42,853 bases of DNA from Chlamydiia bacterium. GTDB lineage: Bacteria; Chlamydiota; Chlamydiia; Chlamydiales; JAAKFQ01. The stretch lies in contig JBDNIV010000003.1 in assembly GCA_041688145.1 (NCBI GenBank), forward strand, positions 1-42,853. The letters run 5' to 3'. Position numbers: made by a program. The first letter of the stretch is position 1. The number at the start of each line of letters is the position of its first letter. This document shows positions 24,001 to 27,000 of this stretch, piece by piece.

Positions 24001-27000
24001 TAAAAGAAGAGAGTCTCTAGGCTCCCAGTCTTCTAAAACGCCTTCTAGGAGGAGCTCTATGGGTAGCACTAGCTCAGGTAGTCCACTGACCCCGATGATT
24101 ACGCAAAATATTTTTCGTCAGATGACACCTATACCTCCCTCTCCTGGGTTGTCACAAGGGGAGGCTTATTCATCAGAGGCAGCCTCTAGCCTACAAGGAA
24201 CACCTACAGCTTCTTATCATGGAACACCTACAGCTTTTGATAGATTGCAATCAGCCCTGTTTGATCGAGAGCCTTGCTTTCACTTGCGTTTTGCGAATCC
24301 ATCAGAATTTTCACCGAGCGAAGAGGCTGCGAATATGGAGGAGCTTTTAGGTCTTTTAAGTGGAGAATTTGTATCTCCTCAGCCGGCTGAACCTAATGAT
24401 GTTGAAATTTTGTCAGGAGGTACTCAGATCCTTGATGAAGAGGGCGCTATCATGCAGAATTCTCAAGGAGAGCCTATTGTGCATCCCCAAGAATTTCGAT
24501 AGTACACAATAAACGCTTAGCGCAAAACCCCTATATAAGTTTAAAAAGACTTGAAATAGATTTTTCAAGTCTTTTTATTTGTTTTAAGTTCGTATTTAGT
24601 TTCATTTTATTTGATAAAATTAATGTCCTCTATTAAAAGAAAGAAGGGGGACAATAGCTGTGAGTATGTTATCGGGGCTGGGATCTTTTGATCCTAATCG
24701 TCATAGGCTGACGTTAGATTTTAAGACAGTTGATAAGTCTTCAGCAGCTTCAGGTGAAGGATTTATACCTGATGATCTTGCTATAGCGCTTAAGGAGTAT
24801 GTTAAATCTGCAAGTGCGGAGCAAAGAGATGCTTTAGAAAAAGCAGTCAGTGAAAGCCCTGTTTCAAAAAAACGTATCACAGCACTTAAAAACTGCATTA
24901 AAGCGCAAAATCCTAAAGAGTATAAGAAGATTCGCGACGTTTTTGTTGCTTATGCACAAGGAGCGCAATCTTCTTCTAAAAGTTTAGGTAAGGCTTCAGC
25001 TCCTAAAATGGAAGCAAGTGCTGCTCTGCCCGAGCTGCCAGATCTTCCAGGTTTGGATGATTTTTCTCCCAAACCTACAGCGCCTAAAGTATCTGCTGAG
25101 CAAACGCTTCAAATACAACAGCTTGTTACAGAGATCAATACGGCGTTTGGTTCTGAGCTAAAAGCTATAGAAGATATAACACCAGCAGAGATTAAAGAAT
25201 TTATGCCTGTTGTAGTCGCTAGCTTAATTTCCAAAAAAGAGCCTTTTAGCGAAGAGTCTATTCATAAAGCAGCTCAGTTTATTAAGAAATATCCTGATCT
25301 TGTAGCTGATATAGACCCAGCTTTAAAAGAGCATTTCATAAATACATCGGACGTTCTTAAGTCAGGTGTTTTTACAAGAGCGCAAGAGACTTCTTCAGGA
25401 GGAGTCTATATGGGCGCGTACCATGGGCAGACTCGTGTTGTAGTAAAACCAAGAAAAGAAGAGTACCTAGCGCCTTATAATCCTAGAGCATCTTTTATAG
25501 TTCCAGGGCGCCCTCCAATAATAACGAGAGGGCCTTTAGGCTCACCTGTTCGCAGAGGGAATTTTTCAGGAGATGCCTCTTTGCGTGAACGTGATGCTTA
25601 CGTGACAGATTATCAGGATGGAAATTTTTCAAAAACGCCTCCTACATTTCTTGTGGCTATACACAAAAGAGGGCCCATGATGTCTGAGGGTGGAGCTCTA
25701 AAAGAGTGTAGTGTACAGGCATTTGTTCCAGGGCGTACCCCTAAAAAAGAAGACCTCCCAAAGCTTGCTCAAGCAAGTTTAGAAGCTATTGTCTACGCTG
25801 ATATTGATGAAGGCAATGCAGATAGGCACCTAGGAGGTAACCTTTTTATGTTGCCAGATGGGAGTGTTCAACGTATTGATCAGGGTATGACGCGAGGCAT
25901 TACAGCTGATGAGTGTAAATTTAGCTGGATAAGTCTGCCTCAAGTAGCGCATCCAATGACAGCTGCTACCCGTGATAAAATAGCAAATCAAAACTTAGGC
26001 CTACGTCTCATGTGTCTTAAGGATCTGGGGCTGCCAAAAGAAGCCATTGAGCTTGAGCGTACAAGAATTTTATTGAAAAAAGAGGCAGCGGCAGCTGGAT
26101 TGACTTTTTTTGATATTGGGGTTATAATGCTCCCTATACCTGGGCCTAGTGGGAGCATAATTTGCGAATTTCGAAGCCTTTTAGAAAGAGGCAGAGCTTC
26201 AGGTGGTGTTGAAGGTGAAATAAAAAAAACAGTAGAAAATATTCAGGGCTGGAAAAAAAGTGTTGAGAAATTGCACGAAGCGAGAAATAAGGCCGCTTTT
26301 GATAAGCATATAAAGGATTTATCTGTGAGTCACCCTTATCTCGCCCATATACTGAGCAAACATATCCAGTTTTTAAGAGGCAAATTATGACACATATAGC
26401 TAGATTGGTAGACGCAAGCTACTCACCGCCAAAGCCTTTGGTTACTGTGGACTATGATACCAATAAGGTGAAAGTCTCTAAAGTTGGGCAACAGGCACTC
26501 ATTCTTCCAGATGACCCTATACAAGGGCAAGCTCTATTACACCCCACGAAAAGCATATTTGTAAGCCCTGGAGAAGAGGGGTATGCAGATCTCTTTACTA
26601 CTTACGTGACACTTTCGCTTCTGCCCGCTCACAGTGAATGGAAGTGGGAAGAGGTAAATGCTTAGCAAGGCACTTCTAAATCAGAAGAAGGCCAGCCGTC
26701 TTGTAAAAAGACGCCATCTTTCATAAAGACCTCTCCATCCGCTTTAATTGTCCCGCCTTTTCTAAGATCACACACCATATCCCAATGAAGACCCGACTCA
26801 TTACTGTTGCCAGTCTCAGGATAACCCGCTCCAAGAGCTAGGTGAAACGTGCCCCCAATCTTCTCATCAAAGAGGGTGTTTTTTGTATAATCTGTGATTT
26901 GGAAGTTAGTTCCAATAGCAATTTCTCCAACTCGCTTAGCGCCCTCATCTTGCTCGATCATAGCTCTTAGAAAGGCTTCATTTTTAGAAGCTTTGATATT

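Follow-up and report, generated by a model that had tools for sequence, protein, structure and literature searches.

A divergent kinase of the type II PI4-kinase fold in an effector-like gene cluster of a freshwater chlamydia

The window analysed here, a stretch of 42,853 nucleotides from a freshwater chlamydia, carries on its forward strand a kinase gene at 24660..26390, which encodes 576 aa when read from GTG 24660 and 574 aa when read from ATG 24666. The reading frame from 24666 to 26390 (+, 574 aa) is intact, and the frame and end given in a preliminary description of this DNA are borne out. The start, however, is probably GTG 24660 and not the ATG 24666 given there, because of a GGGGG at 24646..24650 (+) and the alignment with relatives, in which the ATG start leaves a gap of two residues. 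The GGGGG lies 9 nt before the GTG and 15 nt before the ATG, and may be the ribosome-binding site. Residue numbers throughout are counted from ATG 24666. Between the kinase gene and the paralog upstream of it lies a hairpin of 15 pairs with a T-rich tail (24542..24577, +), a probable terminator; terminator-like sites in the region were as many as the shuffle mean, and only this hairpin was exceptional, by its length. The frequency of promoter-like sites in the region did not exceed that in shuffled sequence. An assembly artefact was ruled out, as no difference is listed for the covered parts of the region in contigs from four runs of four studies, the kinase gene itself being fully covered by the contigs of only one of these runs (X1). 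No match was found in the phage records searched with the kinase domain, and no RNA record is listed as carrying the gene.

The kinase gene is part of a cluster of 5,506 nt (21156..26661) that extends from a gene for a ShlB-like transporter to one for an M29 peptidase. In a genome of the same family but another genus (G001), the stop codons of these two genes are 20 nt apart and the cluster is absent. Its first member encodes an LRR protein with a Ser/Pro-rich N-terminus (21376..22884, +) and is interrupted by a TAA in frame (22315-22317). Two Ser-rich orphans follow, of 234 aa (22892..23596, +) and 256 aa (23732..24502, +), which are paralogs sharing 43% identity over the C-terminal part (E 1e-22). 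An orphan ORF of 92 aa (26387..26665, +), whose status as a gene is uncertain, overlaps the kinase stop by 4 nt and found no match in 200 other genomes when its sequence was used as query. The cluster is one of lineage-specific, effector-like genes.

The protein has several parts. A helical N-terminal region of about 215 residues had been described, and helices are indeed present at residues 144-233, but the region in fact consists of three parts: a conserved domain of about residues 1-95 (24666..24950, +), a low-confidence linker (82-128), and the helices, whose later portion, starting at residue 194, is already part of the alignment with PI4KII. The linker, with pLDDT <50 across most of residues 82-128 in the AlphaFold2 model, is Ser/Ala/Pro-rich and variable in length over residues 101-143 (24966..25094, +). 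The N-terminal domain is kept across a five-member subfamily, described below, and is a candidate targeting or secretion module. It has no shorter homolog among 28 candidates, no match in the Atlas, no paralog within the genome and no profile match to the N-terminal module common to other chlamydial members, and its single-sequence structure model was poor (pLDDT 51). The kinase domain, delimited by structural comparison, spans residues 194-503 (25245..26174, +), and is followed by subfamily-specific, basic C-terminal helices (residues 504-574; 26175..26387, +), with 15 K/R against 9 D/E in residues 501-574.

As described previously, the protein matches no family in Pfam at E<0.01 and none in NCBIfam, and its assignment as a divergent member of the type II PI4K fold was confirmed by structure comparison and by relatives far beyond chance. 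The AlphaFold2 model is confident (pLDDT 87.3, pTM 0.76), and all 12 Foldseek matches at E<=1e-3 are human PI4KIIalpha or PI4KIIbeta. The best structural match is human PI4KIIbeta, with 265 residues superposed at an rmsd of 2.5 A (Z 25.6, 21% identity) and the next family at Z 14. In a second structural list, PI4KII (Z 24.8) is followed by Fam20 (14.0), PI4KIIIbeta (12.3), CtkA (12.1), HipT (10.3) and MavQ (9.4; rmsd 4.7 A, 205 residues aligned). LepB and OpiA are not among the best 50 entries of either list, which leaves room for some similarity, and AnkK, Risk1 and PikA are likewise absent from the 50 of the second; no gamma-type chain is among the PDB search matches. The predicted fold is thus that of a type II PI4K, although PI4K-like relatives supplied the alignment behind the model, so that this evidence is not independent of that from sequence.

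By sequence, 355 representatives were found at E<=1e-3, and the Pfam PI3/PI4 kinase family (PF00454) was detected in 144 of 151 relatives scanned; the seven without it comprise the four closest relatives, P0007, one fragmentary sequence and an adhesin that was a false positive. Among PDB sequences, searches with the single sequence and with a 5-row profile returned nothing relevant, and a 91-row profile alone reached PI4KII; phmmer with the query did not match human PI4KII at E<=10. The query and its four closest relatives form a divergent five-member subfamily, sharing just 42-47% identity, inside a large chlamydial radiation. These four relatives are putatively chlamydial, none having been found when genome and metagenome contigs were scanned with the subfamily alignment.

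All of the residues named in the preliminary description (Y248, K261, P262, E265, E308, D379, D386, R387, H388, N392, D405 and W421) are present. K261 (25446..25448, +) corresponds to the ATP-binding lysine K152 of human PI4KIIalpha, and the metal-binding D405 (25878..25880, +) lies within IDQG, where the gamma type has IDHG and the animal/fungal type IDNG. The catalytic loop, D386-R-H-L-G-G-N392 (25821..25841, +), contains D386, R387, H388 and N392 as described, but its spacing is DRHxxxN, one residue longer than the DRHxxN that had been written. This insertion is specific to the subfamily: the Asn is at D+5 in 165 of 169 loops read (187 sequences) and at D+6 only in P0001-P0004, with P0005 having the D+6 spacing as well in the subfamily alignment. 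K261, D386, N392 and D405 are invariant in the four close relatives, as are the catalytic and ATP-pocket residues generally across the five proteins, and pLDDT is 94-97 over residues 381-410. With all catalytic residues present, the protein would, by homology, be competent for catalysis.

Relative to the human enzyme, the ATP pocket is altered at five positions (I130=Q240, S137=V247, F139=M249, D269=P359 and L315=F394, the last correspondence being downstream of the loop insertion). Seven positions of the PI pocket were compared (E157, Y159, R181, L184, T307, D308 and L349), of which four are kept or conservatively changed (E157=E266, R181=R296, D308=D386, L349=M408) and three differ (L268, N299, A385); within the subfamily, Y159 is replaced by L/K and L184 by N/H/F/Y. 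As the gamma type also keeps E157 (23 of 24 ubiquitin-domain proteins) and R/K181 (24 of 24), these two residues do not discriminate.

The membrane-binding elements described for PI4KIIalpha are a palmitoylation motif, an amphipathic helix, an RK-rich insertion and tryptophans (PMC3974213), and every one of them appears to be missing here, on a comparison made by sequence alignment and not by 3D inspection, in which activation-loop columns are gapped in 8-9 of the 23 reference rows. At the site of the human palmitoylation insertion, residues 266-300 (25461..25565, +) contain neither Cys nor the W166/W169 helix, and instead have a conserved hydrophobic F/Y-I/L-x-P stretch. Between K261 and E308 there is no Cys in any of the five subfamily proteins, as against one to six in all 23 animal/fungal (DRG-type) proteins, and the K-to-E spacing is 47-48 residues compared with 41 in the animal/fungal type. 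The RK-rich insertion region is short (20-21 residues vs 28-46), and no equivalents of CCPCC, W166, R275/R276, W359, Y365 or W368 were found in the alignment of the subfamily.

Comparison by sequence places the query closer to the gamma type than to animal/fungal PI4KII. In phmmer it scored 7.4 bits or less against the 23 DRG-type proteins; its scores with nine named proteins of the gamma type, from plants, algae and Plasmodium, are 19.7-58.7 bits, although the gamma sets were chosen by similarity to chlamydial queries, which biases the comparison towards gamma. The gamma-type ubiquitin-like domain occurs in 24 of 151 relatives, and no DRG loop was seen among the 169 read. A 52-row tree puts the subfamily and the gamma clade together on one side of a branch with 98/94 support and the DRG clade on the other (100/98 for the corresponding branch of a 40-row tree). 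The gamma clade without the query has support of 98/97 and 96/91 in the 52-row and 40-row trees, the query being on a long branch, and a forced grouping of the subfamily with the DRG clade was not rejected (p-AU 0.0745). The low bit scores and missing motifs speak against a gene captured recently from an animal or fungal host, the AU test alone giving no rejection of the sister position. The plant gamma enzymes tested so far are Ser/Thr protein kinases with no lipid-kinase activity detected (PMC4986951, PMC6792133, PMC12953816), at least one of the negative lipid assays being in vitro; the protist gamma enzymes are uncharacterised.

It is plausible that the kinase is a secreted effector, because the genome has an export-gate gene, the protein is free of any Sec signal and membrane helix, and the cluster is lineage-specific and effector-like. 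The export-gate gene is represented by one FHIPEP match (E 9.7e-226), in a family that also includes flagellar FlhA, and the type III secretion system is described as a core feature of chlamydiae (PMC8242063). By hydropathy alone, neither a Sec signal nor a membrane helix was found in the kinase protein; its N-terminus is not hydrophobic over the first 35 residues, and the maximum 19-residue hydropathy mean is 1.67. The content of S, T, P and N at the N-terminus is a crude score. By this measure, the N-termini of the LRR and Ser-rich neighbours fall in the 91st-100th percentile, the kinase in the 76th of 579 genome ORFs, and its relatives in the 10th, 91st, 34th and 19th, values that show no sign of secretion. 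The kinase family as a whole has a median at the 49th percentile, with 12 of 62 members at or above the 90th, and does not separate from background.

The family is more widely spread than had been described: with a chlamydial profile, relatives were found in 206 of 400 chlamydial genomes, and not in 35. They occur in 0 of 29 genomes of one small-genome chlamydial family, probably the Chlamydiaceae. The spread is patchy, often with multiple copies or tandem arrays, and members have varied fusions and variable N-termini and diverge fast. Two chlamydial members (L021 and L060) have animal-type features, and others (L015 and L017) lie close to the gamma clade. Atlas clusters of PI4KII-like kinases also include Thermodesulfobacteriota and Ca. 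Yanofskybacteria. The gamma clade is nested among chlamydial sequences in all four trees, and monophyly of the eukaryotes was rejected (p-AU 0.0007 and 0.030), on trees that have long branches and no free-living bacterial outgroups and whose groups were defined once the first of them had been viewed. The proposal of host mimicry is uncertain, as chlamydial genes are not nested inside the eukaryotic clade in these trees. The nesting and the rejected monophyly would accord with an old, phylum-wide effector radiation of the PI4KII fold, which the small-genome family lost, recruiting host PI4KIIalpha, and from which the plant/protist gamma clade was drawn; this scenario is regarded as quite improbable, its ordinary alternatives being the long branches, the post-hoc groups, the missing outgroups and repeated capture from hosts.

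Our best explanation, tentatively held, is that the gene encodes an active, atypical kinase, a protein-kinase effector secreted by the type III system, which would act on Ser/Thr residues of host protein(s) in the infected eukaryote and on itself by autophosphorylation. Homology in fold and catalytic residues makes it almost certain that K261 and D405 would bind Mg-ATP, with D386 as the base, in a kinase placed by alignment on the gamma side and without the membrane-binding parts of the animal/fungal type. It is likely that the type III system exports the protein and that its N-terminal domain serves for secretion or targeting, whilst a protein rather than a lipid as substrate is favoured by a slight balance at most, given that the bacterial effectors of this fold class named in the literature consulted (LepB, OpiA, AnkK, MavQ, Risk1, PikA) are lipid kinases and that the chlamydial vacuole uses PI4P. 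The protein had been read most simply as an effector that makes PI4P, a view that the analysis does not support as the simplest one, as the gamma affinity, the absent membrane elements and the gamma members without detected lipid-kinase activity all weaken it. A secreted PI 4-kinase that would produce PI4P at a host membrane, the inclusion or another, which it would reach by its own N- or C-terminal domain or by the hydrophobic 266-300 stretch in place of palmitoylation, is accordingly unlikely. In its favour, PI4KII is far ahead of every other family as a fold match, the PI pocket retains E266, R296, D386 and M408, the first insertion has a long, hydrophobic sequence, the sister position to the DRG clade is not rejected by the AU test, and C. 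trachomatis needs host PI4KIIalpha and PI4P (PMC13573033). Against this, the kept E157 and R/K181 are shared with the gamma type, Y159 and L184 are changed, and the nearest tested relatives are those plant enzymes.

An intracellular role, in which the kinase acts within the bacterium or on a small molecule (in housekeeping, development or a toxin-like manner as HipA/HipT, possibly with the 92-aa ORF as partner), would suit the PI4KII-like kinases of free-living bacteria, the bacterial Atlas clusters, the alignment with HipT and the lack of a detected secretion signal. We consider it improbable, as the patchy, multi-copy and fast-diverging spread, the variable N-termini and a whole cluster that is lost or missing from the sister genus fit effectors better, and the putative partner has no match in 200 other genomes. 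A little less probable again is a secreted phosphoinositide kinase of other specificity (PI to PI3P, or PI3P to PI(3,4)P2), as are OpiA, AnkK, MavQ, PikA, Risk1 and LepB. The kinase domains of these effectors are distantly related, LepB_N clusters appear in the Atlas at 0.90 (ranks 23 and 25, 140 shared features), Risk1 is matched weakly by a single chlamydial relative (E 7.5e-5, cut-off 800 bits), and the changed pocket and catalytic loop could alter specificity; the query, however, matches none of those families in Pfam or NCBIfam, and MavQ aligns at only Z 9.4. That the gene encodes a pseudokinase or is decaying, with the loop insertion and IDQG disabling catalysis and leaving an ATP-binding scaffold, is very improbable. 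The D+6 spacing is confined to the subfamily, a neighbouring gene is already split and the ATP pocket differs from human, but the loop and catalytic residues are invariant in five proteins of such low identity, the frame is intact and the loop is modelled with high confidence.

PI3/PI4K-like effector kinases are known from Legionella, Francisella and Rickettsia, and the chlamydial papers listed describe the recruitment of host PI4-kinases. No paper on a chlamydia-encoded PI4KII-like kinase was among the matches listed for the literature searched, which was mostly open-access; supplementary domain tables may already list PF00454 in chlamydiae. Beyond this one divergent gene, what matters more is the chlamydial family as a whole, which is probably a widespread, unstudied family of host-directed kinases. 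A member from Neochlamydia sp. S13, an amoeba symbiont that is in culture (WP_042243537.1, annotated only as hypothetical), makes the family testable. The family would also bear on why plant gamma "PI4-kinases" phosphorylate proteins, and on where this switch arose.

With the effectors LepB, MavQ and AnkK/LegA5 of Legionella, OpiA of Francisella and Risk1 and PikA of Rickettsia, the query has in common that an intracellular bacterium encodes a PI3/PI4K-like superfamily kinase, but it is much more distant from them than from PI4KII (MavQ Z 9.4), with no match to LepB_N, MavQ, AnkK/OpiA, Risk1 or PikA. PikA and Risk1 are exported by type IV systems, and PikA has an H+3 spacing to the Asn compared with H+4 in the query. 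Actinobacterial SCO1664 (TIGR03843), a family of free-living bacteria with profile matches in Corynebacterium, was weakly matched by seven of nine relatives scanned (E 1e-5 to 1e-13, well below the cut-off), but not by the query and its two closest relatives scanned. The next fold neighbours after PI4KII are CtkA of Helicobacter, Fam20, actin-fragmin kinase and HipA/HipT, at Z 10-14 (about 10 or more below PI4KII) and 12-18% identity; the closest analogues named for PI4KIIalpha, CtkA, Golgi casein kinase and actin-fragmin kinase, are all protein kinases (PMC3974213). Animal/fungal PI4KII (human PI4KIIalpha/beta, yeast Lsb6) has the same fold, and equivalents of K152, E157, R181, E193, Q261, F263, D308, N313, D346 and W366 of PI4KIIalpha are kept, but the DRHLGGNL loop of the query differs from its D-R-G-x-D-N-W. 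The nearest named relatives by sequence are of the plant/protist gamma type (Arabidopsis PI4Kgamma1-8, NbPI4KII, OsPI4Kgamma7; ciliate and Plasmodium PI4KII), with which the query has in common the DRH loop, a short second insertion, the lack of a Cys cluster and an F-x-W-x-x-L/W-P-Q after the activation loop. Unlike these, the query is bacterial, lacks the ubiquitin-like domain (which is optional in plants), has its own N- and C-terminal domains and carries DRHxxxN and IDQG in place of DR[HN]xxN and IDHG, and in three trees it branches outside the eukaryotic gamma clade.

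The kinase gene at 24666-26390 (+) is an open frame of 574 residues (numbered here from the ATG), and every residue listed in the preliminary description was in place in its translation. Its true start is probably GTG 24660 and not ATG 24666, since GGGGG lies 9 nt upstream of the GTG and alignment of the four close relatives to the ATG start leaves a gap of two residues. The window is contig C37 of a genome of 1.28 Mb (92% complete), and the genes neighbouring the kinase include the chlamydial families CT021 and DUF1207. The window DNA was found in freshwater or lake metagenomes (seven of the eight runs listed, six studies), and four runs contain at least half of its words. 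When 54 contigs from four runs and four studies were aligned, 53 had ≥99% identity and no differences were listed, though one of the runs compared may be the source sample.

The query and its four closest relatives (P0001-P0005) form a tight subfamily with 42-47% identity over the full length, to which one C-terminal fragment also belongs. The five have in common, at the N-terminus, a domain of about 95 residues that the searches made detected in no other protein; a variable linker and a helical segment separate it from the kinase (residues 194-503), after which come shared C-terminal helices. D-R-H and the Asn of the catalytic loop are present as described earlier, but the spacing is DRHxxxN and not DRHxxN. 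Among 187 sequences surveyed, 169 loops were readable (16 fell outside the search pattern and 2 were mis-anchored), with the Asn at D+5 in 165 and at D+6 only in P0001-P0004; the alignment places the same insertion in P0005.

The query protein has no match in Pfam or NCBIfam. A HMMER search with residues 210-514 against 1.84 billion representatives matched 355 proteins at E≤1e-3, of which 45 reach 1e-10 and 3 reach 1e-30; one match among those listed, an adhesin, was a false positive. PF00454 was found in 144 of 151 scanned relatives (149 among the matches listed, query excluded, plus two from another search), and 24 of the 151 have a ubiquitin-like domain besides the kinase. A 91-row profile matched human PI4KIIalpha/beta at E 1e-30 to 1e-25, the next being PI4KIIIbeta (0.0075). 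The AlphaFold2 model (pLDDT 87.3, pTM 0.76) superposed on PI4KIIbeta with Z 25.6 and rmsd 2.5 A over 265 residues, and among 48,161 representative chains PI4KIIalpha ranked top (Z 24.8), followed by Fam20 (14.0), PI4KIIIbeta (12.3), CtkA (12.1), actin-fragmin kinase (10.9), HipT (10.3) and MavQ (9.4). The earlier assignment to a type II PI4K-type kinase is borne out by the PI4KIIbeta match and by PF00454 in the relatives, and the assignment of the fold is secure, although these same relatives went into building the model.

A five-row subfamily profile matched 30 of 401 genomes of the phylum, near the 35 of 400 Chlamydiales genomes counted previously, but that count falls well short of the 206 of 400 genomes (one unscored) matched at E≤1e-5 by a 31-row chlamydial profile; up to 30 of these 206 supplied seeds and match by construction. 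Among good genomes alone this wider profile matched 173 of 334, and counted by genus it matched 120 of 212. The kinase core was covered by all 21 frames checked from fetched stretches and PF00454 was present in 24 of 26 scanned members, both drawn from the matches listed, with 229 weaker matches lying outside the set from which the checked members came. An independent PF00454 search was positive in 48 of 151 genomes; all 14 control genomes were negative. The kinase was found in 0 of 29 and 0 of 27 genomes of f36, a family of small, nearly closed genomes (1.0-1.3 Mb, about 25 in one genus) that we infer to be Chlamydiaceae, and four of these gave no match to the 91-row profile.

A member is carried by the cultured Neochlamydia sp. 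S13 (WP_042243537.1, E 7.6e-67 with the profile); it lies in a plasmid record (L047:4932-6353; NZ_AP017978.1 150295-151716), is annotated as hypothetical and is adjoined by two transposase genes. Weak SCO1664 matches, Atlas clusters of other phyla and viral contigs show that the fold extends beyond chlamydiae. Distant relatives in 14 viral contigs (L033-L046) are mostly the C-terminal part of frames of 640-870 residues, and BFVD matches include phage proteins, named portal or head-morphogenesis, that have domains of this kind.

Other chlamydial members vary in architecture. L008, L067, P0082, P0091 and P0106 are fusions of the kinase with a NAGPA (phosphodiester glycosidase) domain at the C-terminus, L008 and L067 being on separate tree branches, and tandem arrays occur in several genomes (pairs in L004, L006, L014 and L018; three copies in L063). 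A common module with an N...D-x-x-G-x-L pattern in the first 130 residues spans distant branches (L005, L010-L015, L020, L021, L061, L062); it matched no Pfam family in the members scanned, was not detected in the query and is possibly a secretion or chaperone-binding module. The N-terminal hydrophobic segment of L057 (G128:C2; mean hydropathy 2.25) suggests a protein exported or membrane-anchored, not injected. L021 (G210:C1:201237-202382 +) and L060 (G241:C1, near 10325-11431 +) have features of the animal/fungal lipid kinases (DRG type), namely IDNG and, within the first insertion, a helix that looks amphipathic, with N-W after the catalytic loop in L021; both adjoin the DRG clade in trees and would be better candidates than the query for true PI4P makers.

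Four trees were built, with FastTree (245 rows) and IQ-TREE LG+C20 (52 rows), a 40-row set (12 rows removed, among them those with the longest branches and the two chlamydial ones closest to the DRG clade) and a 55-row set with named references added and three viral rows as outgroup. Common to all, in outline, is a separate DRG clade, a eukaryotic gamma clade (plant/protist type; 98/97; 96/91) placed among chlamydial lineages, and the query subfamily as one long-branched lineage of the chlamydial grade around it, in trees that have long branches and from which free-living bacterial families are absent. A topology that unites all eukaryotic rows was rejected (p-AU 0.0007 and 0.030) and one that joins the subfamily to the DRG clade was not (p-AU 0.0745), for groups named only after the first tree was seen and with unlabelled rows counted as eukaryotic by position. 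The parts of PMC2376095 on kinases and phosphatidylinositol do not count a PI4K as one of the plant genes derived from chlamydiae.

The ends of the ShlB-like and M29 peptidase genes lie 20 nt apart in the other genome of this family (G001, a different genus) and 5,506 nt apart in the window; with this single comparison genome, gain in the window and loss in G001 both fit. Within those 5,506 nt are an LRR gene that is split, a pair of Ser-rich orphan paralogs, the kinase gene and an orphan ORF of 92 aa. The LRR gene (21376-22884) is split by an in-frame TAA (22315-22317) that contigs of all four runs cover without difference, so the split is not an assembly error. The tandem paralogs (22892-23596 and 23732-24502) share a 167-nt repeat (83%) and belong to no Pfam or NCBIfam family, and the second was not found when searched for in G001. 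The five frames of the cluster (21376-26390; kinase, two LRR parts, two paralogs) have a third-codon-position GC of 0.26-0.31 and six flanking genes one of 0.32-0.41, with overall GC similar to the genome. Three neighbours of the kinase have N-termini very rich in S/T/P/N (91st-100th percentile of 579 ORFs); that of the kinase is at the 76th, with its relatives scattered. An export-gate gene is present in the genome. Secretion of the kinase is therefore predicted from context and distribution.

Directly upstream of the cluster, a two-partner secretion pair (16195-21155) comprises a 1010-aa TPS/haemagglutinin-like protein and the ShlB-like transporter, which is conserved in G001. Elsewhere in the window are a second LRR protein (8015-9853, 612 aa), two large genes of no clear family (34490-36295, 36403-38610) and a consecutive sugar transporter, FGGY kinase and xylose-isomerase-like gene (30293-34468) that look like a xylose-use operon, seemingly unusual for a chlamydia.

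The most likely function, held tentatively, is that the kinase would be injected into the host cell, bind Mg-ATP through K261 and D405 and use D386 to phosphorylate host proteins. Production of PI4P is individually less likely, and that of another phosphoinositide doubtful, but together these two weigh the same as phosphorylation of host proteins, so that the substrate may be either a protein or a lipid. A lipid would suit the long, hydrophobic first insertion, which might contact a membrane, and the superfamily's characterised effectors, which are lipid kinases in the parts of PMC9758233 and PMC12607708 consulted; the gamma comparison sets are, moreover, biased, being gathered by similarity to chlamydial queries. 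The kept pocket residues E157 and R/K181 (PI4KIIalpha numbering) do not discriminate, being equally well kept in ubiquitin-domain gamma proteins. Against PI4P, plant gamma enzymes are reported in sections of PMC4986951, PMC6792133 and PMC12953816 to phosphorylate proteins, with lipid-kinase activity undetected. A role inside the bacterium is unlikely, though less so than a phosphoinositide other than PI4P. The loop insertion is invariant across the subfamily and so would be a working variant, not decay. A pseudokinase is the least probable reading.

Chlamydiae recruit host PI4KIIalpha (PMC13573033, in part), and the sections consulted of PMC8242063, PMC3991601 and PMC3482391 do not mention a chlamydial kinase of such type. 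Kinase effectors of the PI3/PI4K-like superfamily are already known and bacterial PI kinases have precedent; new, as far as the literature searched shows, is a gamma-like type II family in half of the chlamydial genomes examined, although supplementary tables may list the domain. The family is large, undescribed in that literature and testable in a cultured symbiont.

As described in sections of PMC3974213, PI4KIIalpha meets the membrane through a palmitoylation insertion (CCPCC and an amphipathic helix), an RK-rich insertion and R129, R275, R276, W359, Y365 and W368, and its pocket is lined by E157, Y159, R181, L184, T307, D308 and L349. DRG-type kinases were typed by catalytic-loop motif, not by taxonomy look-up (at least 118 stretches; motif in 113 frames, of which 24 span the kinase domain and 89 partial ones were dropped). 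The query reached at most 7.4 bits (median 2.1) against 23 scored DRG-type kinases; with nine named gamma-type proteins from plants, algae and Plasmodium, chosen by similarity to chlamydial queries, it reached 19.7-58.7 bits, a Camellia PI4Kgamma3-like protein scoring highest; ciliate and apicomplexan forms are nearer the plant type and uncharacterised (PMC3823935, PMC10543664, in part). In an 86-row alignment the subfamily differs from the DRG type in a first insertion without Cys or W166 and a second of 20-21 residues against 28-46, and it has none of R275/R276, W359, Y365 and W368. It keeps E157 (E266), R181 (R296), D308 (D386) and L349 (as M408), whereas two residues present in all 23 DRG-type kinases, Y159 and L184, are changed. 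With weak DRG-type scores and the membrane elements missing, the earlier proposal that the protein makes PI4P is no longer the best-supported reading: the query is of type II PI4K-fold build, lacks the defining features of animal/fungal lipid kinases and does not nest within the gamma clade.
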